64,000 bases of DNA from an uncultured Methanosarcinaceae archaeon (GTDB lineage: Archaea > Halobacteriota > Methanosarcinia > Methanosarcinales > Methanosarcinaceae). The number at the start of each line of letters is the position of its first letter. Position 1 is the stretch's first letter. Shown piece by piece: positions 2,321 to 19,202 of this stretch. The stretch is taken from NCBI GenBank assembly GCA_963847185.1, contig CAWJYV010000010.1, forward strand, positions 416,001 to 480,000. Reading direction: 5' to 3'. The notes under the pieces are model-generated. The model saw nothing but the letters and a program-made list of their open reading frames with translations, ran no database searches and was not told the DNA's origin. The position numbers and the translations under genes are program-made.

Positions 2321-2794
2321 TCAGTATTTTTTAAAACCTTTTATATTAAGCTTAAAAAGAGACTTTCCATCGCCCTTAAAATCAATCTCCTTCTCCCCAA
2401 CCACAATTAAGACAGACCTGGCAGGAAGCTGGTCGATTTTATCGCTCTCAATCCTCGGGAAGTGGAAAAAGCTCCCAAGAGCATCTGCAATCTCCCCCTT
2501 CCCTGTAAGCACGGATTGAACATCCGGAAACCAGTAAGACTCGATTTCTTTGGAATACCAGTCCACAAACCTGAGGGAAAAAAGGAACTTCCCAGCTTTG
2601 TCAAAAAAACTGAGCTCCCCTGGGTTTCCGTGGTACTCTCCCACAACAATGAGAGCCCCGCCCCCAGCAGATTCCACAAGTTCCTGCATACCCATTTTTC
2701 CGCGTGCAATGCACTTTCCGGCTGCGACCCGCGAGAGCAACTTGCAAAGCGTCCTTGTCTTTGCAGACGGTTTGCGAGAAGTAGTAATTAGCAT
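2321..2794 (-). CDS. Brix/Imp4-domain rRNA maturation protein
   Basis: [16 protein letters not shown] and GNPG motifs of archaeal Brix. Confidence 0.9.
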
Positions 2795-2874
2795 ACTTCC
2801 CCTGACGAGTTAAGAGTATTTTTCACTTTCGCTCCGCCTGGAGAGTATTTTTTCTGTTTGACAAATCCATGCGG

Positions 2875-2960
2875 ATAGATATTGAAAAAGCTAAAGGTCC
2901 AGATCTTAAACTTCGCACCCTCATTGAGGGTTAGAGACATCAAAAAAGTAACCCCGTTTT
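2875..2960 (+). mobile_element. candidate casposon junction 1: tRNA-3'-like target, 14-nt CGCACCCTCATTGA (2914-2927), then GGG-starting end
   Basis: Homologous to the site at 3915-4010 (15/23 identity up to CGCAC; same CGCAC-N9-GGG spacing); lies at the left edge of the island. Confidence 0.45.
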
Positions 2961-3078
2961 GCAAGATTTATATAAAACTTCTTTCAAAAATTGCCCCATT
3001 CATAAGTAATTATCTTTTTACAATGATCGTCTGAAAAAAATTAAGTTATTTTGGATGTTATTTTGAGTTATTTTGATG

Positions 3079-3603
3079 TTATTTTGGATGTTCCTTTTCG
3101 TTTGAAGTTTTCCCTTCATCCTGAAGAAGAGCAAGATCCAAAAGTTCTTCGTACACTTCCTTATGATGCATTCCAACTACACTGGCCTTGAATCGGTCCG
3201 TGCCGGTGCTCCCATCCCTTTGCAGATAAACATATTTTCCGTTTTCAATACCCATAATTACAGAGGCGTCGGGAATAATTCTCACGTTAAAGTATTTAGC
3301 AAGGTCCATGTTCTGATCCACATCCACAGCCATGAACGTTACTTTTCCCCCATATTCTGTTGCCAGTTCATCAAAGACAGGCTTCATTCCCCTACATGCC
3401 TTACACCATCGAGATCCGAATTTCAAAAAAACAGGGCCTTTCTGGAGAGATGCATTTATCTGCTCAATAGAGGTTACTTCTATAACAGTATTTTTCTCCA
3501 GGCCTGCATCGGCCTTTGTGGAATTTGCCTGAGTTTTTTCAGCACAGCCTTCTGCAGATATCATCACTGCAAGCAATATCAATAATGTAATTACTTTCTT
3601 CAT
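3079..3603 (-). CDS. thioredoxin-fold lipoprotein (WCKAC)
   Basis: Signal peptide with lipobox-like AEGC; CxxC and VDVD..LA..F.V..IP Trx pattern. Confidence 0.85.
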   Translation of the reverse strand: MKKVITLLILLAVMISAEGCAEKTQANSTKADAGLEKNTVIEVTSIEQINASLQKGPVFLKFGSRWCKACRGMKPVFDELATEYGGKVTFMAVDVDQNMDLAKYFNVRIIPDASVIMGIENGKYVYLQRDGSTGTDRFKASVVGMHHKEVYEELLDLALLQDEGKTSNEKEHPK

Positions 3604-3914
3604 ATTAGTCGTCCCCTACTCCACCAGAATATAATAAAGAAAATATTTGAAATGTGAACATACTTATTGGATTTACGCAACTGATTTTTAAACGGTTTAG
3701 ATAACAGGCCTCTTGTTAAAACTAAAGAGTTTAAGCTAGACCTTAGTGCATAGATAGACTACTTTGAAATATAAATGAATAATAGAATAAATTTTCCTTA
3801 TAATTAGTAGTGTTTAAAACGAATAAGGACATATTTTTTTTATTTCTTTCCAAATTATCAATAATTCAGTCGACATATATTTTTGAGTATAATTAAAATA
3901 AGGTTTTCTGCCTA

Positions 3915-4010
3915 GATAGAGGTCCTGGAAAAAAGAGTAAGGTTCGAATTTAATCCCTCGCACTAAATTCGTGGGTAATAGGGATCACGAATTTTTTGTA
4001 CGCAACAGAC
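3915..4010 (+). mobile_element. candidate casposon junction 2: degenerate tRNA-Leu-like 3' end, 14-nt CGCACTAAATTCGT (3959-3972), end starting GGGTAATAGGGATC at 3973
   Basis: GGTTCGAATttaATCCCTCGCACtA resembles a tRNA T-loop/acceptor end; lies downstream of the cas1-solo gene. Confidence 0.55.
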
Positions 4011-4108
4011 AAATTTTCACAGTATACTTTTTTAAAATACTTTCAAGTTAAAAAAGAGTATATTTTATATTTATAAAAATAAACAAATAATAAATTTTTT
4101 GTACGCAA
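3990..4108 (+). repeat. 16-bp direct repeat AATTTTTTGTACGCAA (3990-4005 and 4093-4108), candidate subterminal repeats
   Basis: Exact repeat, with a further TACGCAA at about 4119. Confidence 0.8.
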
Positions 4109-4574
4109 GTGCATAAGTTACGCAAAACCACTTTTTCTAAAGTGGGTAAGTCAAAAATAAATTATCTCATTTTTGGAAGTTGCCTTAACAAAATTTACCT
4201 TTGTTCTCTTTCAAAAATTACCTTACAAAAATGAGAGGGGTTGTTTAAAAGTTTTGCAGTTAAAAATAAGGTTATTTAATATACAGATATGCTAATAAAT
4301 ATTTTGATATGTCCAATCTGTCAAAAATACTTACTAATTCAAAAAATGGTTGACTAAAACTGATTTTTTTGTAGTTTATTTAACTTACTGTATAATCTCA
4401 TTTTTTGGAATTTAGAATATATTATTCTGGATTTTTTTTCTTATATTGACTAAAAACTTGATGAGTTATTTCAAATTAATTTCAATACATAAAGCGATGA
4501 AAAAAGATCAAATCATATAACTATTTACTCTTTTAGTTTGGTAATAAACTTATACTTTTTTATGGGCGAATCTT

Positions 4575-7500
4575 ATGGAACCAGTTACTCAAATAATACT
4601 TGGAAAATCTATATCTTCTGTAATTAGTTATGGAGTTCAAACTCTGTGCAAAAAGATTCCTAATTCGATATTTGCTAAGGAAGAAATTGGGAGTGTAATA
4701 TTTGATAACTCTTACTTTGACTCCTTAGTAGAGAGAGATATTGAATACATTAACAAAGAAATAAATAATTTAGATAACACCTATGAAATAAATTTTGAAT
4801 CAATTTGTACATTTTTCAAATATCCAGAAATAGAATGTATAATACGTCAAATATACGCAGCTATTTTACCTAGGAATTTTACTCATGATAAGAACATCAA
4901 AGAGATTGAAAAAGAACTTGCACTTTTATTATCACTATACTTTGGTGTTAAACAGGAAAAAATTTCGAACCTTGCATCAATATTATTCGGCATATTGATC
5001 GAAGGATGTCAAGAGACACTCAGCAAGCAAATCTTCAATAGTGAACTTACAGCCCTAGCAATTATGTCAAATTATAATAATAAAATAATTCTTGATGAAT
5101 TAGAAGGAATAAAAAGGAATACTGAATTTCTTTTGGAGGAGGAAATAAACTCTAAAGAAATTCATCGCTTTTTTGGGGTATATCGTGATCTTCTGAAAGA
5201 AAGGCATAAATGGATACCAATTTCAAATTTCGAAGGTAGTGTAAGAAAACCTATTGATAAAATCTATGTATGCCCAAATTTTATCAAAAGAAGCAAGGAA
5301 AATAGAGTCAATAAATCCTTAGAGTTTTTTGATTTCCTTTCGAAAATACATCGCGTAGTAATACTAGGCGATCCAGGTAATGGAAAAACCACCTTCACTA
5401 AAAAAATGTGCTATGAGTTGTCTTCTAGATATTCAGACAGACTTTTTGCAGGAAGAGAACTGGTTCCTTTTTTAATAGTGATCAAAGATTATCAAGCAGA
5501 AAAAATGAAAAATAACATTTCAATAATAGATTTCATAAGTGATGGATTAAATCCGAACTTTCAAATAGAACCGCCTAAGGGTGCTTTTAAGTATCTTTTA
5601 TTGAACGGCTATATTTTGTTGATATTTGATGGACTTGATGAGCTTTTAGATACGAGATATAGAGAACAAATAGTATATGAAATTGAGTCATTTTGTACTC
5701 TTTACCCTTCAATTCCAGTAATAGTCACCTCTCGTAGAATAGGATATGAGGAAGCTGCATTAAGAGATGACATGTTTGAGATATATGAAATGACTTCTTT
5801 TAATAGAAATCAAATTAGAGAATATGTTGAAAAATGGTTTAGTTTAGATTATGAATTAAGTTCAAATCAAAGAATTGAAAAAGCAAGGCACTTCATGATT
5901 GAAAGCGAGAAGGTATCTGACCTTCGTTCTAATTCTTTGATGTTATCTTTGATGTGCAACATATATAGACAAGAAAATTACATCCCAGAAAACAGACCCA
6001 AAATTTATCAAAAATGCGCTGAAATGCTTTTCAAAAAATGGGATAGATATAGGGGAATTAATCCCAAGATCACGATACAAGACTCAAAAATAGAATCTCT
6101 CATTTCTCATCTGGCTCATTGGATATATACAAATGAGTTCTCAAAAGAAGGTGTAAGAGAAGAGGAGTTAATATGGAGAGCAACTGAATATCTTTACGGT
6201 TCTACTTATGAAGATCACGATGAAGCCAAAAAGGTGGCAGAAGAATTTGTAACTTTCTCAAAGGGACGCGCATGGATATTTACTGCTATTGGTACTAATA
6301 CAGATCAAGAATTATACCAATTCACACATAGGACTTTTTTAGAATACTTTACAGCAGAATGGTTTTGCAAAAATTTTGAGGATACATTTGAGTTAACTAA
6401 TGAGCTGATTCCAAAAATAAGTAAAAGAGAATGGGATGTAGTGGCACAGTTAGCATTCCAAATAAGGGGTGAATACTCAGAGAATGCAACAGATAAAATA
6501 TTCAACACTTTGTTGAAAGTAGCAAATGTATCAGAGGAAGTAGAATGTGGAAATTTACTCTCTTTTGCAGCAAAAAGCCTAGAGTTTATGAGACCAAGTC
6601 CAAATGTAGTTAAAGAGCTAACAAAAGAGTGTTTTGAGTTTTCTCTTTCTTTTGGAAATAGTATCACTAAGGGTAGGAATATGCAACAGGGGAGTATACT
6701 GACTCTGAATAGAATTAGAGGTCTTCCTATTAGATTAATTGTAGACCTCAGGCATTCTATAAGAGAAAATAAAATAAAAGTTGTTGAAACATTAAAAGAT
6801 TTGATAATAGATTATATTAAAAACAAAAGAGATTTTGAAGCAACTTTAGCAGCCGAAATCATTTTTGAATTGGCATATGGAAGATATGACGAAGCTTTGG
6901 GTAAAAAAGAACAACTATACTGGTCTGAAATATCGAATACTATATTCCAAGAATGTTATCAACTTAACAAACCATTATTTGAAGAAGATCTTCATTTGTG
7001 CCTACAATCTTATAATACCTCAATTATAATAAAAATAGATACAGTTCTGAAATTACATGGGTTAGAAGGCATATTATCTGATTTTACTAATTTCATGAAC
7101 CCAAATTCTCTCCATTATGGAATTGGATACTCTTTATTAGACAAAATATTTCCATTTGATTTCTATTTAATAAGAACAACAACTGATTCATATACAGAGG
7201 AAACTATCAAAAAAACATCAGAAATATTACGAAAAATTGGAGAATTTTGTTTAGAGAGTACTTTGCCTATAAATTTAAAAGAGGATTTGTGCACTATGGT
7301 AAACCATTATAAAAATTTTTTATCTGATATGAAGCTACAAACGCGATTCACAAATGATGGCATAAAGGTGCAAAATAGAATTAGTATTCTGCATAACTAC
7401 TCAGATTCTACAACAATTTTCGGAGCATTTTGCTTACTTGCTATTTTATTTGAGCTAAATAATAGTCCCAGATCTAGAACATTTATTAAACATTTTATAA

Positions 7501-7706
7501 ATCAAGTTGATACAAAACCTTTAAAAAAGATTTTTTTGGTATGGTTGGGGGGCTGTATAGATTGCAATGAAATAAAAAATGAACTTGACATGGTTGGGTT
7601 CTCGAGTAGACAAAAAGAATTCATAGAGAATTGGGCTCAAAAGAACATCCGTTTTTTAAGGAGTAAAAATAAAAGCTTAAAAGATTATGGGATTAATGTA
7701 TCTTAA
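4575..7706 (+). CDS. NACHT-family STAND NTPase (NLR-like, candidate defence protein)
   Basis: Walker A GDPGNGKT, Walker B LLIFDGLDE, sensor VTSR and winged-helix FTHRTFLEYF; AT-rich. Confidence 0.9.
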   Translation: MEPVTQIILGKSISSVISYGVQTLCKKIPNSIFAKEEIGSVIFDNSYFDSLVERDIEYINKEINNLDNTYEINFESICTFFKYPEIECIIRQIYAAILPRNFTHDKNIKEIEKELALLLSLYFGVKQEKISNLASILFGILIEGCQETLSKQIFNSELTALAIMSNYNNKIILDELEGIKRNTEFLLEEEINSKEIHRFFGVYRDLLKERHKWIPISNFEGSVRKPIDKIYVCPNFIKRSKENRVNKSLEFFDFLSKIHRVVILGDPGNGKTTFTKKMCYELSSRYSDRLFAGRELVPFLIVIKDYQAEKMKNNISIIDFISDGLNPNFQIEPPKGAFKYLLLNGYILLIFDGLDELLDTRYREQIVYEIESFCTLYPSIPVIVTSRRIGYEEAALRDDMFEIYEMTSFNRNQIREYVEKWFSLDYELSSNQRIEKARHFMIESEKVSDLRSNSLMLSLMCNIYRQENYIPENRPKIYQKCAEMLFKKWDRYRGINPKITIQDSKIESLISHLAHWIYTNEFSKEGVREEELIWRATEYLYGSTYEDHDEAKKVAEEFVTFSKGRAWIFTAIGTNTDQELYQFTHRTFLEYFTAEWFCKNFEDTFELTNELIPKISKREWDVVAQLAFQIRGEYSENATDKIFNTLLKVANVSEEVECGNLLSFAAKSLEFMRPSPNVVKELTKECFEFSLSFGNSITKGRNMQQGSILTLNRIRGLPIRLIVDLRHSIRENKIKVVETLKDLIIDYIKNKRDFEATLAAEIIFELAYGRYDEALGKKEQLYWSEISNTIFQECYQLNKPLFEEDLHLCLQSYNTSIIIKIDTVLKLHGLEGILSDFTNFMNPNSLHYGIGYSLLDKIFPFDFYLIRTTTDSYTEETIKKTSEILRKIGEFCLESTLPINLKEDLCTMVNHYKNFLSDMKLQTRFTNDGIKVQNRISILHNYSDSTTIFGAFCLLAILFELNNSPRSRTFIKHFINQVDTKPLKKIFLVWLGGCIDCNEIKNELDMVGFSSRQKEFIENWAQKNIRFLRSKNKSLKDYGINVS

Positions 7707-7951
7707 ATATTAAACCACATATTAAGCTCCCTGCAAAAATATCTTTTCCAAAACTTATTAAGTTTGCAAACAGCCATTGTTTAACAAAATAGGTACCTTT
7801 AGTGCTTACTTTCAAAATAGAAATAAGACACACATTTTAATTTCATGACTTCAGGAGCGATGTTTATTAAAAATTTGAAATGTTTTTGTGGAAAAAGCCT
7901 CCGTTTTTTTTCTTTTGCTAATTTCCAGCCATAAAACTTGACTTTCCTTTA

Positions 7952-8656
7952 TCAAGTTTTAACCTGACCCCCTAAAACCAAATTTTCCCAAGCCTTAACT
8001 CTCTCCAAAACGTGGCTGTTTAGGGTAAAAGGTTTATCACTCTTGGCGTTCTGTTTCATATAATGTAAAGTACCCTTAGAAAACCCTAACTTTTTCCAAT
8101 CAACATAAGAAATACTCAGGATCTTTTGCCTTATTTCGTGGGAATCAACCCTCTGAACCCCAAATTCAGGGCTAACAAAATCTAATTCCTTTGGTTTTCC
8201 TGTAAGATTATGGGCTAACTCTCTGGCCTTTAGGAGTAATATAGACCCCCAGGTTGTCTGTTTATCCCCGTAATTTACGGGTTTGTTGAGCATGTTAGAG
8301 AACTCGTTAGCTACTTTCTTACCCCCAAGACCCCTTAATCTCAGGTTATAATTCTCGGTTACAATGAAATCTTTCTTATCCATTGTACCATTTTCAACTA
8401 AATTTATGACCGCTAAATCTACAAGAAACCTGAAAGGTTCCTGTAAATCATAGGCTAAACTATTTTTGCTGGGGTTCATTTCATGTAAAAACCCTACATG
8501 AGGGTCTAAACCAACAGTATTTATGACCCTTAAACACTCAGCTTCAAGTAAAGAATACCCATAATTTAGCATGGTACTTACCATATCCCCTGAACCCATA
8601 GGTCTTCTGTACTGGTCAATTCTTGAACAAAACTCGTACTTTTTCGGGATAGCTTT
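7952..8656 (-). pseudogene. cas1: 5'-truncated casposase (Cas1-solo, family-2 casposon type with C-terminal extension)
   Basis: Cas1 motifs MLNYGYSLL, GLDPHVGFLH and SLAYDLQEPFR; C-terminal WKKLGFSKGTLHYMK; plausible coding frame continues upstream of ATG8599 (KAIPKKYEFCSRIDQYRRP) to about 8656 and then stops; N-terminal half absent. Confidence 0.9.
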
Positions 8657-8786
8657 ATTATTTAACTTATCTAAGATCTATTATTCTTTTTGATTGTTTA
8701 TAATTATAAGGACTATACAGTTCTCATAATCTAGGGATTCATGAAAAAAAATAGATATGTTTATTAAGCAGTTTATTTTTATTAAT

Positions 8787-8902
8787 TAGGTTACGCACTT
8801 GAAGTACCAAATCAACAGCTGTAAGCTTACAACTTTCTGAAATTTAAATTCTAAATCTGATGTTTACTGTACTTGATTTTGAATCTGAAGTGCGTAAGTC
8901 CA
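8787..8902. mobile_element. ~116-bp MITE-like element with inverted ends TTACGCACTT / AAGTGCGTAAGTCC
   Basis: Visible terminal inverted repeat, no ORF; GGACTTACGCA-type ends recalled as recurrent in Methanosarcina. Confidence 0.6.
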
Positions 8903-8966
8903 GATTATTTACACATAAAACAAACGAAGGGGATATATTATTAGAAGGACACTAATTTTTTGTTTA

Positions 8967-9908
8967 ATGCTATTGCTTTTGATAAGCACAGCTTCAGCTG
9001 CGACACTTGATGTAGGACCCAAAGCGAAATATCATACGATTCAAAAAGCAGTAGATGCTGCTAAAGATGGGGATACTATTAGAGTTGCTCCAGGAACTTA
9101 TAAGGAAAATGTAAAAATCGATAACAAAACAATCTCATTAATGGGTACAAAATATCCTACAGTATATGGTTTTTGTTTTGAATCTGAGGATTTTGCTGAC
9201 TTCACCCAGTCTTTGAATATTAATGGATTCAAGATATCAAGAGATGGTGTGACCTTCACAGATTCAATTTTTTCTCATGCACCTATTACAACAGTGAGAA
9301 ACAATTATTTCTTAAACTGCAACATTACTATTACTGAGCGTAAGAATGGAATCAGTGTAATAAATAATCAATTCACAGGTCCTAAAGCCGGCATCCGCGC
9401 TTATGAAAGTAGCTATGATAAAGTTACAGGTAATAAATTCACAAATTGTGAAAAAGCAGCATTGGTTCAACTAGGATCAATAATTAAATTGTCAGGGAAT
9501 ACATTTACAAAATGTGATAACTGTGTGTACTCTTCTGAATCAGATTTTGGGGAAGTTTCTGATAATAAGTTTTCACAATGTCCAGTTGGACTACTACTCA
9601 CTGGATACACTCACGTTGATAAAATATCTACAAATTCGTTCACAAAATGTGGGACTGGCCTTAGTGTTATGGAAACAAAAGTTAACGACGTGGTTGGAAA
9701 TACATTTTCACAATGTGAGAAAGGGCTTTACGCTGAATCTTCATTTAACTCTCCATCATTTCCATCATTTGATAAAGTAACTAAAAACACATTTACTAAA
9801 TGTGATGTAGGCGTTACTCTTGTAGGTGTTCCAATTGATCCATTCACTGAAAATAAGTATATTAAAAACAAGAAAAACATAGAAATTATAAAAACAATAG
9901 AAGAATGA
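8967..9908 (+). CDS. secreted right-handed beta-helix (NosD/pectin-lyase-like) surface protein; true start possibly ATT8937
   Basis: Signal peptide ASA; YHTIQKAVDAAKDGDTI.V.PGTY.E; repeated N.F..C..G coils. Confidence 0.85.
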   Translation: MLLLLISTASAATLDVGPKAKYHTIQKAVDAAKDGDTIRVAPGTYKENVKIDNKTISLMGTKYPTVYGFCFESEDFADFTQSLNINGFKISRDGVTFTDSIFSHAPITTVRNNYFLNCNITITERKNGISVINNQFTGPKAGIRAYESSYDKVTGNKFTNCEKAALVQLGSIIKLSGNTFTKCDNCVYSSESDFGEVSDNKFSQCPVGLLLTGYTHVDKISTNSFTKCGTGLSVMETKVNDVVGNTFSQCEKGLYAESSFNSPSFPSFDKVTKNTFTKCDVGVTLVGVPIDPFTENKYIKNKKNIEIIKTIEE

Positions 9909-9924
9909 GAGCTATTAAATTAAT

Positions 9925-10070
9925 GGTTCTGTTGCAAAAAATCTGGTTATTTTACAAAACCAGTGAGAAACATCACAATTGGGATATATAGGAGCCATAA
10001 AACAAGTCAATTATGGAACAAAAAGGATTATCATCCTAAAGGATAGAAAAATTATTTTTGCAACAGGACC
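9925..10070. mobile_element. 146-bp MITE with IS6-family-like terminal inverted repeats
   Basis: GGTTCTGTTGCAAAAA ... TTTTTGCAACAGGACC (15/16 inverted match); resembles IS257/IS26 ends; no transposase. Confidence 0.75.
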
Positions 10071-10302
10071 GCCTAACTTGAGAACAGGAGCAGGAAACAC
10101 TAGTCATGTGAACACGGTTGTTTAACTTGAAGGTTTTTAAACCAGAACTCACCAAGCTATTGGTTTTTAAGGCATTCTTTAACTTATGGAAAAATACTCT
10201 TTTTTAGTTTTTGGGAACTCAGAAACAATATTTTTGAAATATTTAAAAAAAGTTTTTGTGAAAAAAATATTTGGTTTTTTCCTTTCTTTAACCCCCTAAC
10301 CT

Positions 10303-10590
10303 TAAAACTTAACCCCCAAAACCAAGTTTTCCCAAGCCTCAACCCTCTCCAAAACGTGGCTGTTAAGTGTAAAAGGTTTATCACTTTTGCGTTTGTTTCA
10401 TGTAATGCAAATTTCCCTTATAGAACCCTAATTTTTTCAAATCAATGTAAGAAATACTCAGGGTCTTTTACCTAATTTCTTGGGAATCAACCCTCTGAAC
10501 CCCAGATTCAAGCAAAGCATACCCATAATTTAGCATGGTATTTACCATGTTTCCTGAACCCATAGGTCTTCTATACTGGCCAATTCTTGA
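10303..10590 (-). pseudogene. cas1: casposase remnant 2 (3' end fused to the MGSGD/MLNYGY segment; ~380-nt internal deletion; frameshifts)
   Basis: 10303-10503 aligns by eye to about 7960-8161; 10504-10590 aligns to about 8541-8626. Confidence 0.9.
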
Positions 10591-10679
10591 TTAAACAAAA
10601 CAGAACAAATGATTTTAATATGTAAAAACACGATTTATAAAAATTGGAAGTAGGGAGTAAATTTTGAACTTTTCGAGAT

Positions 10680-11114
10680 TTATTTAATAACAATAGTCTT
10701 ATGAACCCACATCTTTTTACCACAATCTTTACACTTAATAGTCAAACAGCTAATGTAATAACCGGTTTTTGAAAACTTGTGTACCGGATTTTTTAGTGAT
10801 GAAGTAATTTTTTTTCCTTCGAGATGTTTTCCATCTCCAAAGTCCCATCTGATGTATGTCTCTTTACCTTTTGATAGATCCTTAAATTTTACTACTCGCG
10901 GATCGCTTGAAGAAGCGGCTACCGCTGTATAATCAATGTGAGAATGCCCGCATTTGCAGGACAGACAGGCTGTTGCTGGAGGGGTTCCTGCACCAAGAGG
11001 AGTCTTGGTTACAGAAATTTTTGCAGAGGCTCCTGCAGACAATAAAGTCAATATCATTAATACGGTGAAAACAGATAATGTTATTTTCCATATAGACTTT
11101 CCAGTATTTTTCAT
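10680..11114 (-). CDS. small secreted single-PKD-domain protein, Cys-rich
   Basis: Signal peptide; F.DLS...WDFGDG...NPVH.F...G.Y PKD motif. Confidence 0.85.
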   Translation of the reverse strand: MKNTGKSIWKITLSVFTVLMILTLLSAGASAKISVTKTPLGAGTPPATACLSCKCGHSHIDYTAVAASSSDPRVVKFKDLSKGKETYIRWDFGDGKHLEGKKITSSLKNPVHKFSKTGYYISCLTIKCKDCGKKMWVHKTIVIK

Positions 11115-11457
11115 ATAATTCTCTCCTGTTTTTTCTTAGTTTTATTCGGGAAACCCGTAACCAAAAGTTCCAGGGAAAATTAACATATAAACATACTTAT
11201 TTTCATGATATCTCATAAAAATCAGAAAGCGGATTTGAAGCTTTGTAATGCTTTATTTTCAGGCTAAAAACATTATGACATATGAAAATAGATTTAATAT
11301 TTATTTGATTTGATTTAAAAAGGGAATGTAAGTCTTTTAGACATGTAACACTGTCAAATCTCTTTAGGTTATTCTAATATGGCAATCGGCAGTCTGTCTA
11401 AAAAAAGATTGATGAATCGGGGAAATAGTGTAAGATTGACTTGGAGAAGAAATAAGT

Positions 11458-11506
11458 GCTAAAATTACAAGAAACCTGAAAAGTTTCTGTTAATAATAAG
11501 CTAAAC
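11458..11506 (-). pseudogene. cas1: casposase remnant 3 (~50 nt, SLAYDLQEPFRFLVDLA region)
   Basis: GCTAAAATTACAAGAAACCTGAAAAGTTTCTGT...GCTAAAC aligns to 8412-8460. Confidence 0.7.
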
Positions 11507-11641
11507 ATGATTTATTTAAGCCATTGATAGATATATTTTAAAATAAAATAACATTTTTACAAAGAAATAATTAAATATTAAAACTTTCTTATTATAGATA
11601 GAAAAGCTAAAATTCAATAAGCAAAATCGGGGGATGGATAT

Positions 11642-11764
11642 ATGGGGGACGAAATATCCGACGAGGATAAAAGGAGACTGGCTATTTTCCTGCTTGTCTT
11701 CTGTTTACTGACAATAACAATTACAGCATTTATGGATTATTTCACAATCTTTCAGGCCATTTAG
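11642..11764 (+). CDS. 40-aa single-TM microprotein (MGDEISDEDKRRLAIFLLVFCLLTITITAF...), copy A
   Basis: Hand-translated; paralog at 12917 keeps the frame and the upstream region. Confidence 0.65.
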   Translation: MGDEISDEDKRRLAIFLLVFCLLTITITAFMDYFTIFQAI

Positions 11765-11881
11765 ACTTTTTAACTTCAGGTCAACGTCAAATATACCATT
11801 ATGATAAAACGACAAGAAATATTATGGGAAAGCATTTTATTTGGATGCTCAGGAGAAAACTTAATCAGAGCTCCCGAAACT

Positions 11882-12163
11882 AGTTTTCCCAGGCCTTAAC
11901 CCTCTCCAAAACATGGCTGTTAAGGGTGAAGGGCTTATCATTTTTGGCACCTTGTTTCATGTAATGCAAAGTTCCTTTAGTTTAGGCTGCAATTTTCAGT
12001 TACAATGAAATTCTTCTTATCCATTGTACTTTTTCAGCTAAATTTATGACTGCTAAATATACAAGAAACCAGAAACCTGAAAGGTTCCTGTAAATCTTAG
12101 GCTAAACTGTTTTTGCTCGGGTTCATTTTTATAAAAACCCCGCATGAGGATCTAAACCAACAG
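11882..12163 (-). pseudogene. cas1: casposase remnant 4 (3' end fused to the GLDPH..TENY segment; ~260-nt internal deletion)
   Basis: 11882-11980 aligns to about 7981-8078; 11981-12163 aligns to about 8340-8517. Confidence 0.9.
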
Positions 12164-12332
12164 GTAAAATGGCTCAAATGATAGAGTCAATACAAAGAAT
12201 CAAATACCTGAAAACTCTTCAGAACTCTTTGAGATATTCATGGCCAATTGGGAGCAGATACACAGGGGCTTAACCCTGCTATCTTTTTTGTGGAAATTCG
12301 ACGTCCCAATTGAAGCACAAGAGGATTTTTTG

Positions 12333-12719
12333 ATGAAAAAGATATGTCTTTTATTAGTTATGCTACTAATTACGAGCGTATTTAGTGGCTGCATCGGACA
12401 GGAACAAAACTCAGAAGTTAACAATACGACAACACCTTCGTACAACAGTACCCAGAACAGGCATCCCAGTTTCTGGTCAATGATGTTCTGGTCGAGTCTC
12501 TGGAGCAGATATGTAACACCAGGCATCCAGGCTGCAAAATACCGCGCTACTCCCGACACCGCAACAAAAAAAGACGCTTCAACCCCCTCAAAAAAAGTTG
12601 ACGCAAAAGACCCAACAGAAACAGCAAATAAAAAATCAGTAAGCCCGGATTCCGGAAACAAACCAAAACCTAGAGTAAAAACAACTACTGCACGAATTAG
12701 GCGAAGCGGAAGACGTTAA
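12333..12719 (+). CDS. lipoprotein of unknown function with Trp-rich patch and basic C-terminus
   Basis: GAGGA upstream; MKKICLLLVMLLITSVFSGC lipobox. Confidence 0.8.
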   Translation: MKKICLLLVMLLITSVFSGCIGQEQNSEVNNTTTPSYNSTQNRHPSFWSMMFWSSLWSRYVTPGIQAAKYRATPDTATKKDASTPSKKVDAKDPTETANKKSVSPDSGNKPKPRVKTTTARIRRSGRR

Positions 12720-12916
12720 TATATATTTTAACTTGGTCATATTGACCTGGTCATGACTTCCAATTCATTTTTTATTTCTCTGAATGCCAGGTACTATTTT
12801 AGCGTTTTTTCCCATATAATTCAATATTTTTACAAAGAAATAGATAAATATTGAAACATCATAATTATCAATATTAAAAATAAAATTGACTCGGCAATAA
12901 TATGGGGTGTTGCTAT

Positions 12917-13048
12917 ATGGAAATAGAAATATCCGACAAGGAAAGAAGAAGGATTACTATTTTCCTGCTAATCTCGTGTTTACTGGCAATAACAGTTACA
13001 GCGTGTATATGTAATTTAACAACCTTTCTAGCCGGTTATCTGTTCTAA
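12917..13048 (+). CDS. 43-aa single-TM microprotein (MEIEISDKERRRITIFLLISCLLAITVTAC...), copy B
   Basis: Hand-translated; GGGGTG RBS; paralog of 11642-11764. Confidence 0.65.
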   Translation: MEIEISDKERRRITIFLLISCLLAITVTACICNLTTFLAGYLF

Positions 13049-13181
13049 CTTTCCCCAGGATACTTTAATCTTGAGTTATAATTCTTATTTACTATTTTCA
13101 ATTACAGTGAACTTAAAAAAGGCAATAAATTAGATAGTAAGTTAGTCTTCTATCCTACTATCAATTGCACTTGATTCTATT

Positions 13182-16121
13182 TCATCTTCGTTTATACAGG
13201 AATGCTCCAAGAAGACCAATTATGCAGGAAATTATTTCAAATCCGGGAGTACTTACGTTTTCTTTCTGAGGAGTATTTGTTTTTTCTGCTTCCTCAGATT
13301 TTTCAACGTCTGATGCTGTAATTCCATTTTTTTGTCCGGGATCCTGTGTGCTGGTTTCAGGCAGGATTCCAATCACATTTCCTTTTCCTGCTGTCCTGGC
13401 AGTTATTGCAAATGGAGAGAATCCAGGGGTTCCTGCTGTGAAATACAGATAGCTATTGTCTTCTTTGACGAAGGCTGTTGGAAGTTCGTTCCATTTCTTG
13501 TCACTGTATCTGTTCAGGATTATTGAAGACTGGTCAATTTCTTTACCTTTTATCCAGTCCTTTTCGACTTTGAAACAGATGACGCCGTTTTCGAGATTAT
13601 CTGCATCACTTCCATAACCCCCGTTTCCAACCCAGATATTGAGGTAGTTGTAGACCTCGCCTTCAGGCGTCTCCGGAGTAAGCGTGGATTTACTTTTAAG
13701 CATCTCGACAATGGCTGTTGTCTTACCAACGGTCTTTTTTGGATCAAAGCATAAGTAAACAATATCAGTGGCATCATTTGTAAAATCAAACTTTGCAGGA
13801 TTTCCACCTGTAATGAAGACCTGACAAAGTTCCTTTACTTTGACATTCTTTGCAGGCTCGGGAGAACCAGCACCTCCACCACTTCCACCGCTTCCTCCAC
13901 TGTTGCTATCGCCGCTTGAACCTGTCTGGCTCAGTGCTGTTATTGTAGCCGTTTTTGTGTCAGTTCCGTCTGCATTGCTCGTTATAAGGCTAACGTCGTA
14001 GGTTCCTGCCGAGGAATAAGTATGCATCGGATTTTGCTCAGTTGAAGTACATTCGTCTCCAAATTTCCAGTACCATGAAGTTGGAAACCCTGTGCTTGTA
14101 TCCTCAAACTGAACGATCAAGGGTATATTTCCATATGTCGTGCTTGAACTGAAGTTCGATGACGGAGGGTGTGATAGGGCTGTGATGTAATTCACTTTTT
14201 GAATAGAATCTGATCCGAATTCATTTACTACGGTCAGGTTAACAGTATAATTTCCGATATTCGAATATTCATATATCGGATTCTGAAGCGTTGATGTATT
14301 TCCATCGCCGAAATCCCACAACCAGGATTCTGGAAGTCCGGTTGATGTGTCATTGAACGCCACACTTAGCGGGCGTGGACCGGTTGTGGAATTGCTGCTG
14401 AAGCTGGCAGCTGGAGCTGTCGGTGGAATAACAGTAATTGCCTGGAGCATGGAATCACTGGAAACTTCATTTGCTACAGTTAGATTAGCCGTATAGACTC
14501 CAGGAGTTGCATACGTATGAGTAGCGTCTGCACTATTACTTACAGGCGAACCATCCCCGAAATCAAGCAGTTCTGTGGTCTGGTTGACGCTGCAATCCTT
14601 AAAAATCACACTTTTTCCAGCAAATATGCTGTTTCTGGAAACTTCATAATTTGCAGTCACACTGGAAAATCTTGGAGGTGGCACCCAGGAAGAATTGCCC
14701 AGATCTCCCATGTGATAGAATGCCCCGCCATTACGACTTGTATAATCAAGAATCGACTCCAGTCTATCCGTTGAAGTCTGATATGAGATAGTGACATTTG
14801 GAGTGATCGTATGCCCATATAACACAAGTACGGTTCCTGTTTTTATTGCGTAATCGATCCCGTCTTCTATAGACTGCAAGCTAGCACCGGACCGGTCATC
14901 TATTTCAACACCATACAGAAGTTGAGAATCGTCCCACTTGTAATAAGCCAGTGTTGTTTCGTTTACGTTCCCGTTTACAAGCGTGGGAGTTCTCGTTCGA
15001 AGTGTCCGGAAATATGGAGATAATGCTACATCTGTATCTGCATTTCTACTCGAATAAGGGTATGCAAGAGTAAAAACCGGATAACCATAGCGGGTGATCT
15101 CTACGATATTAGGGAATATTTCCTGGCTTAGCCATGCTGTAGGAGGGTTATCATTTACAAACTGAACTGAGTTTATGTGATTGTATCCATGGCAGGCTAC
15201 TTCCCATCCAGCCGAATGCAGTGCATTTAATTCATTTATTACGGCCTGTGATCTGGTACTTACTTTATTTACATTAATAGTACACGTAGCATTATATTTC
15301 TGGAACATTGACAAATATGGGTAACAGGTTTCGATATGTGCTGAATCGTCCCAGGAGAGAGCAATGCCTCCAGGTTTGTCTAATTTCTTTATGCTCCGGA
15401 GATCATTGCCATATAAATTTAAGACCTCAGATGGATTTAATGTTCTGTTATACAAATAAAAAGCATAGATTGACCCGTTTAGCCCATACGCAGTATCAGG
15501 GGAAGATCCTATCGTCCAGTTACCCTTCTGATCAGTGATATAGTCTGGACCTGGAGCAGCAGCTGTATAGTTTACACCTTTCCCATTCGCAATTCCATTG
15601 AGATATAATTGAGCGTGAGAGCCATCGTATGTCACAATAGCTTCATAATCTTTATCAGGCTGGATACGGCTCTCACCTGAACCGGAAATAGTATAATCAT
15701 TTGCATTAAATTCATACATCAGCGTTGAATTCCTGTGGTCAATGCCGATCTTGAAAATATTATTGCCTTTGGAAACCAGGTATGTATAACGAGCCGGATT
15801 GCTGGAATTATAACGAAAAAATACCCCACATGTTATATTCGGATCAGTAAATGCCAGCTTTTCATTGTCAGGTATTGTTATCCTATTTTTTCCGTTAAAA
15901 TGCCTTGCTATTTGTTCAGTTGGTAAAATAAAAGTTGTACTGCCGTTATTTATACCATTATTTCCGTATTCGGAATTGTCAACTATAGTATCCCCTGTGT
16001 CTTCACACCAGTTATAATACACGATTTGATTTGCGTCCGCACATGCATTGCCAGCCAGACCTGTTATGAATATGAACAATAGTCCACATATCGCGTATAT
16101 TTTAAAAAACTGAATTTTCAT
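13182..16121 (-). CDS. cell-surface glycoprotein: LamG-like, polysaccharide deacetylase (NodB), 3 PKD, PGF-pre-PGF and PGF-CTERM domains
   Basis: Signal peptide; LSWDD, GWEVACHGYNH and LAYPY; WDFGDG repeats; TPGFSPFAI; terminal TPGF + TM + KRR. Confidence 0.9.
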   Translation of the reverse strand: MKIQFFKIYAICGLLFIFITGLAGNACADANQIVYYNWCEDTGDTIVDNSEYGNNGINNGSTTFILPTEQIARHFNGKNRITIPDNEKLAFTDPNITCGVFFRYNSSNPARYTYLVSKGNNIFKIGIDHRNSTLMYEFNANDYTISGSGESRIQPDKDYEAIVTYDGSHAQLYLNGIANGKGVNYTAAAPGPDYITDQKGNWTIGSSPDTAYGLNGSIYAFYLYNRTLNPSEVLNLYGNDLRSIKKLDKPGGIALSWDDSAHIETCYPYLSMFQKYNATCTINVNKVSTRSQAVINELNALHSAGWEVACHGYNHINSVQFVNDNPPTAWLSQEIFPNIVEITRYGYPVFTLAYPYSSRNADTDVALSPYFRTLRTRTPTLVNGNVNETTLAYYKWDDSQLLYGVEIDDRSGASLQSIEDGIDYAIKTGTVLVLYGHTITPNVTISYQTSTDRLESILDYTSRNGGAFYHMGDLGNSSWVPPPRFSSVTANYEVSRNSIFAGKSVIFKDCSVNQTTELLDFGDGSPVSNSADATHTYATPGVYTANLTVANEVSSDSMLQAITVIPPTAPAASFSSNSTTGPRPLSVAFNDTSTGLPESWLWDFGDGNTSTLQNPIYEYSNIGNYTVNLTVVNEFGSDSIQKVNYITALSHPPSSNFSSSTTYGNIPLIVQFEDTSTGFPTSWYWKFGDECTSTEQNPMHTYSSAGTYDVSLITSNADGTDTKTATITALSQTGSSGDSNSGGSGGSGGGAGSPEPAKNVKVKELCQVFITGGNPAKFDFTNDATDIVYLCFDPKKTVGKTTAIVEMLKSKSTLTPETPEGEVYNYLNIWVGNGGYGSDADNLENGVICFKVEKDWIKGKEIDQSSIILNRYSDKKWNELPTAFVKEDNSYLYFTAGTPGFSPFAITARTAGKGNVIGILPETSTQDPGQKNGITASDVEKSEEAEKTNTPQKENVSTPGFEIISCIIGLLGAFLYKRR

Positions 16122-16790
16122 TGTAATTAAACCCCTTAAATGAAATAAATGTTGAAGTATTCTATCCAAAAAGCAATTTTAGTGCCGCATTTTTCCCTTA
16201 TAGTCCAAATTCCTTCATTTTGACAAAATGAAATAATATTATTCTCATTTTGATTTACTCCAACTTCATTATTGTCTGAGTATTTACATAGTGTGACCCT
16301 CGTGTTAGGACTGTAAAATTCAAAAATTCTTTACTATGATATTGATCTAATAATCACAAAGCCAGGGTTTGAACGAATAATCCAATTAGTAAACAATGTT
16401 AAAATAATTATACAGGTCAAACATTATAACTTTTTTGTCCAGTATGTGATAATTATATAATATACATTATTAATATAGACGCATTTAAGGTAAAGAAATA
16501 CATATAGGAATATAGAAACTAGATATTTCCAATAATGTAGAAAAACAAGGAATGATAAAATGCATAAAGAGAGAAAAAGCACTGTAATTGTCTATGAAAA
16601 CAAAAAATTGATTTATAGAAAATATATCTAAATAAGCCTAATAAGTAGAAAAAATGAATAAGAAAGACTATCTGGACAATAACTCTTTCTTAAGTTTCAT
16701 TTCATTAGCGCAAATTCTCCTCAAATAATCCTGAGATTACAGACAGAAAAAATATTGAGGACTTTTCTTCTTCATCCATTTGAACCGGCA

Positions 16791-18152
16791 TTAGAACACT
16801 CCTTTTGGCCCTGCTGACAACGCTTCAAGCCAGGGGAAGTCTTTTCTCATAGACGCATTCTTAATCACCTGTTCTACATACCCCTTATCAACGTTAACGT
16901 CGGATGTGGAATTTGCGTATAAGTAATTTCCACCGGCGTTGTTTGAGAGGCAGTTGTTTTCCAGGATGAAGGAATGAGTGCCATTCAGCTTATTAAATAC
17001 TGCATATCCTTTTCCGGCTGTACGGCTTGGCTGTGTATTAATAATTATATTATTTTTTACAAGGGTTGTGTATCCGGATTCCGGGGCTGCAAAGGCTTTA
17101 ACTCTTTTGTGGGCTATGGCTGCGCCGTAGCACCCATCAAAGAAATTATTCTCTATGATGGTGTTCTGGAAGCCGTTAAGCACTATGCCGCCTCCCCAGT
17201 CAGCGCCCTGGTTGATGCTGGTGTCATAAAACCTGTTATTATGGATGTATATGTCTTTTGCATCATCTTTGGAGTATTTGGATCCGTAGCCTGTAATCCA
17301 GATGCCTGCGGCGTTGGTTTCATACAGGAGGTTATTGTATATCTCGATGTCATCCATTACGGTTGATGAGCCTTCTTTCTGGATCTGGATGCCTGCGCCT
17401 CCTTCCCCTTCGGAGTTAATGGTGTTGTTGTAGAAATTTATGTGGTTTGAGTTGTAAGCTCTCAGGCCGCTGTTTGTCCTGCAGGTTATTTTGTTGTTCC
17501 AGGCTTCTATGTTTGAGGAATAGACGGCATAGAGGACATCATGACCCAGTTTGTATACTGTGTTATTATAGAACTCGATGTTTGAACACCTACTAACTTT
17601 CAGGCCATCTCCATGGCTATCGTGCATGTACATATCATGAACTTTTATGTTTTCGGATTCAAGGAAATGAATCAGATTGTAATAGCTTTGCCCATTAATT
17701 TTATCCTCGTTCTTGTCGTGGTTTCCGTAGATCTCAAATCCCCTTATAGTAATATCAGTATTTCCGGAGCTGTCCATCTGTGTAATAAGAGGTTTTTCTG
17801 CTGGCCAATCTGCATTATCTTCAAGTTTTATTACAGCTGTTGAATCGCCTTCCAGGATTGTATTGCTTCCAATAAGAATACTGTCTGAGATCACGTATGT
17901 AATATTGCCTTCCAGGTGAACGGTTGAGTATTCAGGATTTTCTGCCACGTAAGCAAGAGCCTTATTTATCTCAACCTGATCATCAACACCATCACATACG
18001 AAATCCCCACTCTCATTAGTAGTTACATACACAATTTTGCCAGAAGGCTCTGGCAGGAAGAAAATTATAATTGAGATTAAAAAAATAAAAAGCAAGAGTG
18101 AAATTACTATTTTTCTGATTCCCCATTTGTTAGTTTGTAGTTCTTCGTCCAT
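16791..18152 (-). CDS. membrane-anchored right-handed beta-helix protein (disaggregatase-related)
   Basis: N-terminal TM; GDF.CDG.DDQVEIN.AL and HDSHGDGL; parallel beta-helix repeats. Confidence 0.85.
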   Translation of the reverse strand: MDEELQTNKWGIRKIVISLLLFIFLISIIIFFLPEPSGKIVYVTTNESGDFVCDGVDDQVEINKALAYVAENPEYSTVHLEGNITYVISDSILIGSNTILEGDSTAVIKLEDNADWPAEKPLITQMDSSGNTDITIRGFEIYGNHDKNEDKINGQSYYNLIHFLESENIKVHDMYMHDSHGDGLKVSRCSNIEFYNNTVYKLGHDVLYAVYSSNIEAWNNKITCRTNSGLRAYNSNHINFYNNTINSEGEGGAGIQIQKEGSSTVMDDIEIYNNLLYETNAAGIWITGYGSKYSKDDAKDIYIHNNRFYDTSINQGADWGGGIVLNGFQNTIIENNFFDGCYGAAIAHKRVKAFAAPESGYTTLVKNNIIINTQPSRTAGKGYAVFNKLNGTHSFILENNCLSNNAGGNYLYANSTSDVNVDKGYVEQVIKNASMRKDFPWLEALSAGPKGVF

Positions 18153-18582
18153 TTTACATCCTCAAACAAATAAAACTATATCTTTCATATATTAAAAAAA
18201 TTTACCTGTTAAAAATTGTAAAAGACCTTTTTGAAGATGTCTGGACATTCAGCAGGGCCCTGACTGCTAAAATCAATTAATAGCTTTCCTGAATACGTTC
18301 TTTGAAGGTTCTATTCCTAGGAAAATTTTCTTTACCATAAAAGAAAGATTTGGCGAAAATATCGGAAAAAGCTCATAATATAATTATATTTTTACAGTTT
18401 TATTATGACAAAATATTATATATTTGGAGATATAACATTTAAATGTCAAATTGAATAAATAGTGAAATGAGCAAACCACCTCAAGTTGAAAATGTAGAAT
18501 TAAGTCGCTTCAAAGCAAAAATAATTATTGAAAACAGAATGCAGGGATCTGGCATCTACAAAATCTCTGGTGAGGTGATAAA

Positions 18583-19035
18583 ATAAGTCCTGATGAATCT
18601 AAAGACAAAAGAGCAGAAAATGAAAACTCAAATAATGAATTTTTTGATCTTACGGCAATTCCCCTTCCAAAAACCGATAATTCACTATATTCGATTTTGA
18701 ATTCCTTAAATCAGAATATTGCAGACTTTTATACTCTTGTGAAATTCAACAGTTATCTATCTGAAGACCACCTGAATGTCGAACTACTTAAAAGAAGTAT
18801 GAGTATTCACAGGGATTTTGCAGTTCTCTTCCTCCATACCAAAGAAGAAATGGTATTCACTGCCCACTCAGAATTTTTGGAGAAAGTGGAAAGATTGTTG
18901 TTCAAAGGAGAAGTGAGTAATAATTGCATAAACTATACCTGCAAATTATGCAGGATAATAAATGACTATAAAATAGCCTTACACATAGAGGGATATCTGC
19001 CAGATCCGAAAATAAGCTCACTGTCTCCAGTTTAG
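18583..19035 (+). CDS. hypothetical protein; frame is open from ATA18583 after GAGGTGA (track start TTG18697)
   Basis: Open frame and a strong SD; no recognisable family. Confidence 0.5.
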   Translation: MSPDESKDKRAENENSNNEFFDLTAIPLPKTDNSLYSILNSLNQNIADFYTLVKFNSYLSEDHLNVELLKRSMSIHRDFAVLFLHTKEEMVFTAHSEFLEKVERLLFKGEVSNNCINYTCKLCRIINDYKIALHIEGYLPDPKISSLSPV

Positions 19036-19202
19036 TTATCTAATTATCTGCCTGATTATCTGCCAACTTGTCCTTCTCTCCAGGTTTCTTTTTCTAGAAG
19101 TGAAGAAGTATTAACCGGAATCTCTTACCCTAGCTTTCTCACAAAGTACTATGGGATGCAACTATTCACTGCTGCAACCTGATGCAGCGGGCGAAAACAA
19201 TG

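Follow-up and report, generated by a model that had tools for sequence, protein, structure and literature searches.

How does DNA from the gene of a Cas1 enzyme come to lie in four pieces on one strand, with other genes interleaved between them, in an archaeal genome that holds no intact Cas1 of any kind? The question is raised by a 64,000-nt stretch of DNA from an uncultured Methanosarcinaceae archaeon (assembly GCA_963847185.1), which is called the window throughout and corresponds to positions 416001-480000 of contig C10. The genome holding the window was designated G000 and comprises 4.04 Mb in 10 contigs; designations from G001 onward refer to other genomes of the genus, C to contigs, and L to extracted loci. 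Casposons are transposons driven by a Cas1 enzyme, the casposase, and are the presumed ancestors of the adaptation machinery of CRISPR. To our knowledge, little is known about how casposons carry, gain, or leave behind passenger genes.

The pieces lie in the spacer between the genes rpoP and brix. We consider it moderately probable that window positions 3941-13095 are a fossil stack of related family-2 casposons at a tRNA-Leu-like attachment site. In each unit, cargo and the 3′ part of cas1 have survived, and a terminal inverted repeat (TIR) remains for the outermost unit alone. The absent core comprises the 5′ half of cas1, the helix-turn-helix (HTH)-like gene, the genes of 212 and 110 aa, the gene for the family B DNA polymerase (PolB), and the right arm.

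Casposon left end of the array

Since a casposon left end occupies positions 3941-4133 of the plus strand, the array starts at 3941 and not at 7952, the start given by a previous description made from the letters alone (the sequence-only reading), in which this end and the cargo behind it were absent. The leader-like flank of the attachment site is a stub resembling the 3′ end of a tRNA-Leu gene from the T-arm to the acceptor end (3941-3962). It is joined to a 14-nt target copy led by CGCA (3959-3972), which stands directly before the TIR. Over stub and target, 27 of 34 nt match the 3′ end and target of a real tRNA-Leu(TAA) gene at C4:11129-11214, which also bears a left arm, and by this match the site is a tRNA 3′ end or look-alike intergenic site, as expected for a casposon insertion. 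ARAGORN returned no tRNA in the window and no full tRNA at 3941. According to the published account, a CGCA-led 14-nt target-site duplication (TSD) is the rule for the casposons of M. mazei (PMC4779613). The window target is a single copy, and no TSD was found, the sole other match with up to 3 mismatches (15702) being at chance level.

The left TIR (3973-4005) was recognized by BLAST against other casposon ends and borne out by a profile constructed from 10 TIRs of five intact casposons of the genus (profile positions 1-33, nhmmer E 0.0015), and a subterminal repeat of the TIR follows in the same orientation at 4092-4133 (profile positions 17-58, E 1.9e-5). In BLAST searches, the TIR with its flank was 82% identical to L030 and 85% to L025. 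The same two-part left end is present at the intact casposon G013a, in the rpoP-brix spacer of G046, and in an M. mazei-like array (L079). The TIR profile revealed this one end only, and no inverted partner was found in the 64 kb, so that the window holds one TIR of the two that delimit an element. Two other candidates for the window end were rejected: the exact TIR of the casposon MetMaz-C1 was absent at up to 3 mismatches, and a degenerate TIR-start motif gave a chance-level match only.

In the five intact casposons, the left side consists of the TIR, 2.6-4.3 kb of variable cargo, and cas1 on the opposite strand, after which come four core genes (one of about 300 aa, those of 212 and 110 aa, and PolB with about 890 aa), more cargo, and the second TIR. 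The order in the window is that of this left arm. Behind the TIR, in the place where intact casposons hold variable cargo, stands an intact open reading frame (ORF) on the plus strand for a NACHT/STAND NTPase of 1043 aa (4575-7706; Pfam NACHT E 2e-14), and the first cas1 remnant, R1, lies on the minus strand 4 kb inside.

Casposase remnants

The cas1 pieces were mapped with nhmmer using a nucleotide profile built solely from eight intact casposase genes of the genus, and all of them lay on the minus strand. R1 (7952-8657) represents gene nt 522-1227 including the stop codon and retains an open frame of 215 aa from an ATG at 8599; the profile recovered it at 7955-8656 (nt 523-1224, E 3e-213). 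R2 (10117-10601) joins nt ~547-641 to nt 1012-1225 and continues for about 180 nt past the stop, containing stops and frameshifts; its cas1 part occupies 10298-10601. The profile recovered nt 1010-1221 at 10302-10511 (E 2.5e-48) and nt 553-640 at 10503-10590 (E 1.8e-21), and in BLAST the two matches share 8 nt where they meet. The tail of R2 is homologous to the sequence downstream of cas1 in G013a and G016, not to the tail of R1. R3 (11458-11506) is a 49-nt piece covering nt 719-767, which was borderline in the profile search (11453-11506, nt 719-772, E 0.018) and had an E value of 1.5e-10 in a pairwise BLAST against the G009 locus, with 85.7% identity to the G009 gene. R4 (11856-12175) joins nt 650-838 to nt 1100-1226, again with stops and frameshifts (in the profile search, nt 1100-1222 at 11859-11980, E 2e-26, and nt 650-838 at 11982-12175, E 1.7e-35). 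A candidate fifth trace at 13050-13095 (minus strand, nt ~824-859) was not significant with the profile (E 2.3) and was 74% identical to 8323-8365 in a repeat search.

BLAST against the nearest intact gene yielded the same map, with limits within 5-26 nt of those in the sequence-only reading, whose four minus-strand pieces were thus recovered by both methods. Its statement that the copies carry differing deletions and that three share the 3′ end of the gene was likewise borne out: R1, R2, and R4 each reach nt 1220-1226 of 1227, and the internal losses amount to about 370 nt in R2 and 270 nt in R4. At the nucleotide level, the remnants are 79-86% identical to one another, and the pieces are 73-94% identical to casposases.

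The remnant DNA derives from casposases. R1 is 94.5% identical in protein over 235 aa, and 91.4% in nucleotides, to the intact 408-aa casposase of G009, its tail included, in agreement with the proposed origin from a Cas1-solo casposase. In Pfam, R1 matches Cas1 (E 1e-29) over profile positions 186-282 of 283 alone, and a tail of 115 aa comes after this match. In the M. mazei casposase, the active site consists of E162, H232, and E247, and the HTH comprises residues 342-406 according to PMC6977970. R1 keeps the His and Glu motifs and the HTH tail, and since it starts near residue 175 of 408, it is without the N-terminal domain and the first catalytic Glu. Of the Cas1-solo protein with C-terminal HTH that belongs to a complete casposon, only 5′-truncated pieces are therefore present. 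Far from the array, weak matches to the cas1 profile at 51250-51487 and 52460-52520 were not significant (E 0.15-3.6).

Ancestry of the remnants

Copies of a dead fragment would differ neutrally, and under the neutral expectation about 80% of changes are nonsynonymous. The observed counts were lower in every comparison (p denotes fewer nonsynonymous changes than neutral, and dN/dS the ratio of nonsynonymous to synonymous divergence). Between R2 and R1, 31 of 49 changes were nonsynonymous (p 0.005, dN/dS 0.38), and between R4 and R1, 22 of 49 (p 8e-8, dN/dS 0.14). The corresponding values were 8 of 34 for R1 and the copy on C4 (p 4e-12, dN/dS 0.07) and 12 of 60 for R1 and G009 (p 7e-23, dN/dS 0.05). 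The test is conservative, because misalignment at the frameshifts of R2 and R4 can only inflate the nonsynonymous counts. Since the divergence among R1, R2, and R4 is mostly synonymous, at least three different, once-selected casposase genes contributed these remnants. With 94% and 91% identity, the C4 copy and G009 are also nearer to R1 than are R2 and R4 (81-82%). The case that the sequence-only reading had named as its own refutation, local copying of a dead fragment, is argued against by this synonymous excess. The open frame of R1 and its dN/dS of 0.05-0.07 indicate that R1 was disabled recently, and R1, the unit nearest to the TIR, is the least decayed.

Loss of the casposon core in G000 and across the genus

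The proposed absence of cas2, a CRISPR array, and PolB was confirmed over the genome for Cas2 and PolB and over window positions 1-24000 for repeats. No Cas2 was found in G000, no CRISPR-like tandem repeat in 1-24000, and no match in G000 to PolB by tblastn with two casposon PolBs or in a search with an 890-aa PolB. Accordingly, neither the protein-primed family B polymerase of a complete casposon (G000) nor cas1 and cas2 beside a repeat-spacer array, as in a CRISPR-Cas adaptation module, were found.

With full-length queries, 13 cas1 fragments were obtained in G000, all within nt 522-1227 except for one 53-nt match, and eight of the 13 reached nt 1208 or beyond. There were no matches in G000 to the N-terminal half of cas1 and no fragment of the HTH-like or the 110-aa gene, and just a 31-aa stub was kept of the casposon 212-aa gene. 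Two further left arms were recognized in this genome. One, at C4:11224, has its TIR at the real tRNA-Leu(TAA) gene and a cas1 remnant 5 kb inside. The other, at C10:305573, has a cas1 remnant 3 kb inside and cargo that is 90% identical in protein to left-arm cargo of the G014 casposon. Three co-oriented cas1 pieces surround the latter TIR (C10:303515-310897), beside the stub of the 212-aa gene, and two pieces covering the same part of cas1 lie 500 nt apart on C6 (17639-17752 and 18257-18430).

The survey was extended to 24 other genus genomes, the same for each query, with matches counted as high-scoring segment pairs. The C-terminal 240 aa of cas1 gave 179 matches in 22 of the 24 genomes, including some CRISPR-type Cas1 at 27-39% identity, and 16 matches in G000. 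The N-terminal 174 aa gave 25 matches in 11 genomes, 10 of them in intact genes, and none in G000; the 890-aa PolB gave 38 matches in 13 genomes, and none in G000. Among the aligned cas1 fragments, 44 of 63 ended at nt 1190 or beyond and their starts were spread from nt 188 to 1171, part of this 3′ excess being due to sampling, because the 63 fragments were gathered with a C-terminal query; the G000 figures alone are free of this bias. Fragments of PolB were far rarer than cas1 3′ fragments, and 17 of 26 lay beyond residue 700, that is, at the 3′ end next to the right-arm cargo. Thus, the gene ends that border variable cargo persist, and the left arm does so much more often than the right. One PolB, that of a second casposon in G012 (C1:1439295-1443121, L028), came as two ORFs, one for residues 1-346 and one for 340-883, some 1.1 kb apart, which may be an insertion or an intein-like interruption.

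Passenger genes between the remnants

The interleaved cargo named in the sequence-only reading, a beta-helix protein, a PKD protein, and a microprotein followed by a lipoprotein, agrees with the ORFs and the Pfam results. The beta-helix module (8675-10131, plus strand) carries with its flanks a gene at 8967-9908 for a 313-aa protein with a signal peptide and NosD-type repeats (Pfam NosD E 6e-22). A complete copy of this gene was found in only two of the 24 other genomes, and contigs from RNA libraries of a related strain cover 8872-10087, which is not proof of transcription. The gene is flanked by two short multi-copy elements, a 110-nt unit at 8791-8901 containing a 34-nt hairpin (arms 8791-8824 and 8864-8897) and a 60-70-nt unit at 9914-9985; copies of each are found in many places in G000 and in further genomes of the genus, with 72-91% identity.

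A secreted PKD-domain protein of 144 aa is encoded on the minus strand at 10680-11114 (Pfam PKD_4 E 1.4e-8). Outside G000, a cas1 remnant or a TIR is found no more than 1.5 kb away from 13 of 23 copies of its module, and the gene is a recurrent passenger of casposon remnants. Beside this module, a cas1 limit at nt 585-593 recurs in G010, G008, G002, and G012.

Blocks A (11543-11776) and A′ (12816-13051), both on the plus strand, are 73% identical over about 230 nt. Block A contains an ORF for a 40-aa one-helix microprotein (11642-11764) and block A′, its second copy, an ORF of 48 aa (12902-13048), and the two align over 36 aa. Both have the motif EISD..RR..IFLL..CLL.IT.TA and one predicted membrane helix, and their blocks sit just downstream of cas1 stubs; the ORFs may represent a real microprotein family. 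Between the blocks, the lipoprotein ORF (12240-12719, plus strand) shows, read by eye, the lipobox LLITSVFSGC after an internal Met near 12333 and had no match in Pfam or NCBIfam.

No homologues of the window passenger genes were found in the eight casposon loci compared, and no further copy of the NACHT gene in G000. The TIR-adjacent cargo of three decayed arrays is a large NTPase or nuclease of the kinds found in defence systems: the NACHT protein of the window (4575-7706), a protein with Mrr_cat and NACHT-associated nuclease matches in G024 (L072 541-1983), and an LRR-Roc-COR protein in the M. mazei-like genome (L079 10068-12872).

Similar arrays and movement of modules

By tblastn, cas1 remnants were found in five of 15 occupied rpoP-brix spacers (G016, G006, G046, G060, and G066), and BLASTN added a sixth, G011. 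In the spacer of G046, a TIR and its subterminal repeat are found at a distance of 0.7 kb from brix, oriented as in the window; because its TIR subtype and target 14-mer differ from those of the window, it is a separate insertion.

The M. mazei-like genome G012 contains a mirror-image array with, in this order, four co-oriented cas1 pieces, the LRR-Roc-COR gene, and three TIR copies with a tRNA-like stub. It also contains an element that agrees with MetMaz-C1, as published, in every letter of its TIR and its 14-nt target duplication, and on this agreement the genus is taken to be Methanosarcina. The intact casposons G006b and MetMaz-C1 each have a 5′-truncated cas1 piece a few kilobases outside one TIR. 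In G012, the right target copy of MetMaz-C1 directly abuts the start of another TIR (L031 13355-13423), and 5.4 kb beyond that stands a stub of the cas1 3′ end (nt 1035-1227; L031 18817-19005), so that MetMaz-C1 has a decayed neighbour arm. The settings of G006b and MetMaz-C1 look like earlier stages of the process that shaped the array.

The beta-helix module is 92.4% identical to G024:C53:2616-4058; the value is 94.5% for the coding sequence, 90.1% for the part upstream of it, and 92.8% for the part downstream. The order in G024 is a partial TIR, an Mrr-type nuclease, cas1 nt 950-1227, the beta-helix module, and cas1 nt 688-752, followed by housekeeping genes syntenic with G000 C4:236-244 kb at 81% and 74% identity. 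Other flanks shared by G000 and G024 are 76-87% identical, and the housekeeping background is 74-87% overall. Since the sub-array stands at a different locus of another species at an identity above this background, it moved horizontally. Leftward, the G000-G024 homology ends at the cas1 stop, beyond which the cargo differs (NACHT in the window, the Mrr-type nuclease in G024), and about 12 nt of the cas1 fragment on the right of a G024-type module are still recognizable in the window. The identical left module edge in G000 and G024 was rejected as a cassette end, as it was set only by a 445-nt deletion in G024. The rpoP-brix spacer of G024 itself contains nikR and no casposon end.

Environmental contigs were obtained from two sludge metagenomes (X1 and X2) and their RNA libraries. 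They come from a mixed community, no sequencing run holding more than 0.24 of the sampled words, and provide hints only. A strain near-identical to G000 is represented at low depth in the NACHT region: the summed depth in X2 was about 25 there and 300-2700 elsewhere, the cas1 3′ end included. The G024-type junction (10123 to 8427) occurred at a depth of 613. Further joints link homologous positions of R1, R2, and R4, and one skips NACHT (4081 to 7959) with a side of 21 nt; contigs were placed at 85% likeness among many cas1 paralogues, and several joint sides of less than 30 nt are unreliable.

Formation of the array

On the favoured reading of a fossil stack, casposons would have inserted side by side at a regenerated target, and deletions would then have begun inside one cas1, taken out the TIR-target-TIR junction, and ended in the neighbouring element. 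The passenger genes (the defence-like NTPase and the secreted proteins) may have been kept by selection, and deletion would have shed a useless or costly core. Before it reached this site, part of the array may have been put together within a composite element that could still move, or exchanged in by recombination. Earlier papers describe tandem casposons with a deteriorating neighbour without TIRs (PMC4046053), tandem insertion and solo TIRs for Methanosarcina casposons (PMC4779613), and the in vivo integration of a mini-casposon at the left target copy of MetMaz-C1, resulting in a tandem (PMC10359463).

Several observations weigh against this account. Neither a TIR nor a second target copy lies between the units or at the right end; with the internal TIRs and targets gone, each unit junction needs a deletion of its own, and the tandem stage itself is not visible at the window locus. 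All four remnants belong to the G009 casposase lineage, the nearest sequence to R2 is R1 (81%), and in a tree of a short, 213-column alignment, R1 and R2 as sisters were not rejected (approximately unbiased test, p 0.52). Blocks A and A′ indicate that local duplication or sister elements were also involved. The excess of cas1 3′ pieces over PolB pieces in the 24 genomes is unexplained by random deletion alone. Finally, the 92%-identical sub-array of G024 points to imported ready-made pieces rather than to build-up in place, and since this sub-array recurs elsewhere in another species, part of the window array may have come ready-made. Of the sequence-only claim that successive casposons had inserted here and collapsed, the origin from several casposons is upheld by the synonymous divergence, and insertion one by one in place is not, as internal TIRs and TSDs are missing.

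The cas1 pieces could instead be portable homology blocks by which recombination adds, removes, and swaps genes in a working shuffling locus, which we regard as unlikely. What stood of the integron-like locus proposed by the sequence-only reading is that homology stops within a few nucleotides of the cas1 stop in every comparison: R1 with G009, C4, and R2, intact casposons among themselves, and G000 with G024. The same boundary would, however, arise under ordinary selection from a conserved gene beside replaceable cargo. In G024 the beta-helix module has cas1 on both sides, of which the window keeps the 12-nt trace, and the module is 90-94% identical between the species as against 86.6% for the adjoining cas1 piece (Fisher p 0.049). 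The remnants overlap one another only in part, R2 and R4 for instance sharing 115 aligned nt. The metagenome joints between R1, R2, and R4 and the joint that skips NACHT are what exchange would leave, subject to the mixed community, paralogues, and short sides described above. Against exchange stand the lack of a recombinase, of a common hairpin or attC-like site, and of a uniform orientation, the genes facing both ways; nor was any pair of strains found that differs by a single cassette.

A more specific proposal, which we hold to be distinctly doubtful, is that left arms are growing, transferable gene stacks, in which deletions across the junctions of tandem casposons would fuse new arms to old ones and in each round add one layer of cargo with a cas1 3′ stub, the newest nearest to the TIR and the leader-like tRNA stub, and the cas1 stubs would let layers swap between elements and species. 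If this were true, the growth of such a stack would be a coarse, gene-sized analogue of polar CRISPR array growth, and the recurrence of cas1, beta-helix, and cas1 together with the genus-wide excess of 3′ stubs would be consequences of stacking and not of plain decay.

Local segmental duplication of a single decayed remnant, followed by divergence and different deletions, would account for the common orientation of the remnants, for R1 being the closest relative of R2 and inseparable from it in the tree, for the duplicates A and A′ that each lie beside a cas1 trace, and for the C6 remnants of the same cas1 part at a distance of 500 nt. It is nevertheless very improbable, because the nonsynonymous shares of 31/49 and 22/49 fall short of the neutral 80%, and R1 is much closer to C4 and G009 than to R2 and R4. 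Moreover, R4 is without nt 839-1099, although the fifth trace represents nt 824-859, and the genes between the remnants are mutually unrelated. Separate insertion of non-autonomous mini-casposons, each with its own ends and mobilized in trans, is scarcely to be expected. Such elements would fit the numerous, dispersed cas1 3′ fragments with a shared 3′ end and varying 5′ limits, as well as the limit at nt 585-593 that recurs beside the PKD module in four genomes. Units 2-5, however, have no flanking TIR, the C-terminal query explains part of the 3′ excess, and among 13 loci with dispersed fragments, flanks were shared in few pairs only (such as L068/L069). Dispersal in the manner of miniature inverted-repeat transposable elements was rejected on the same 13 loci, whose flanks were mostly unrelated; L068/L069 looks like one orthologous locus.

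Setting of the array in the rpoP-brix spacer

The fossil stack, as we read it, lies in a 16.6-kb island of low G+C content between brix (2321-2794) and rpoP (19405-19542), both on the minus strand; G+C is 0.23-0.38 across most of 3.5-13.5 kb and 0.44-0.48 in the flanks. The conserved L37Ae-rpoP-brix operon is thus split in the window by 16.6 kb (2794-19405). The coordinates of rpoP and brix were compared in 59 genomes of the genus. They form one operon, adjoining or overlapping each other, in 17, are 0.7-16.6 kb apart on the same contig in 18, G000 included, are far apart or inverted in five, and are on different contigs or unplaceable in 19. The comparison of this interval that the sequence-only reading had suggested therefore revealed variable spacer content between genomes. 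In G000 and G012, a diverged copy of the brix start region (its first 17-20 nt) stands just past the rpoP stop, which suggests that the spacer opened once, anciently, and has been a soft spot ever since.

Two tandem repeats lie near the ends of the spacer. One, at 1825-2031, lies upstream of the brix side and comprises about 19 copies of 11/22-nt units; the other, at 19203-19280 just past the rpoP 3′ end, has 5.5 copies of the 14-nt unit ACTGATAAAAAAGA. A scan of the window for sigma-70 promoters and terminators gave hits at shuffle level only, with a model that does not apply to archaea.

Relation to known systems and implications

Published accounts already include casposons in tandem, a neighbour in decay that has no TIRs, solo TIRs, and the analogy to Tn7 islands. 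The locus is a clear but ordinary case of the published tandem insertion and decay, and it extends a known kind of element. Like the tandem casposons of M. mazei (PMC4779613), it reflects reuse of a target by Cas1-solo transposons with inactivation of older copies, and it shares with them the tRNA-Leu-type target, the CGCA-led 14-nt target sequence, duplicated in those casposons, and a family-2 casposase with HTH tail. Unlike them, the locus has no intact element, its genome has no PolB, and at least four remnants are stacked; only left arms are present, the internal TIRs are gone, and the passenger genes between the remnants are intact. Like the solo TIRs of M. mazei in that paper, a casposon end persists at the site after loss of the body, but here 9 kb of cargo and cas1 pieces are retained behind the TIR.

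The analogy to Tn7 attachment-site islands was drawn in both PMC4046053 and PMC4779613. In Tn7 islands, too, site-specific transposons pile up, decay, and leave an island of passenger genes; the difference is that the enzyme here is of the Cas1 type and not TnsABC+D, and that the site is a pseudo-tRNA stub in an operon spacer and not the end of a conserved gene. With integrons, the array has in common short single-gene units, a recurring separator sequence, and a locus content that varies between genomes. It differs from them in having no IntI-type recombinase, attI, attC, common promoter, or uniform orientation, and its separator is a decaying gene fragment of varying extent. No integrase was found by Pfam among 10 selected ORFs of at least 112 aa in 2-20 kb, with shorter or overlapping ORFs outside the scan; the domains recovered were NACHT, NosD, PKD, thioredoxin, Disaggr_assoc, and the Cas1 fragment. 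In place of an attC-like site, the units share only cas1 pieces of differing extent and blocks A and A′, and the genes lie on both strands.

A further comparison is with Ds, the internally deleted, non-autonomous form of the DNA transposon Ac, in which the ends are kept and the middle is lost with variable breakpoints. The casposon remnants resemble it in this, and the PolB fragments of the genus are also 3′-biased. They differ in that G000 keeps one type of arm and that the units are without ends of their own.

In the accessible parts of the literature found, there was no description of layered 5′-truncated casposase stubs with intact passengers, which is not proof of absence, nor of genus-wide one-sided survival of left arms or interspecies transfer of stub-flanked modules. 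For the biology of the genus, the locus means that decayed casposons can leave functional-looking genes of defence type and for surface proteins inside the spacer of a core operon. Decay across the genus is strongly one-sided, in that cas1 3′ ends and cargo stay and the polymerase and cas1 5′ halves vanish, and pieces of such arrays also pass between species. If this one-sidedness reflected a mechanism, such as polar stacking or recombination at cas1 stubs, and not selection and deletion, a Cas1 integrase would be accreting genes by a new route, in concrete parallel to the growth of CRISPR arrays. This idea is testable in M. mazei, a genetically tractable species with an active casposon.

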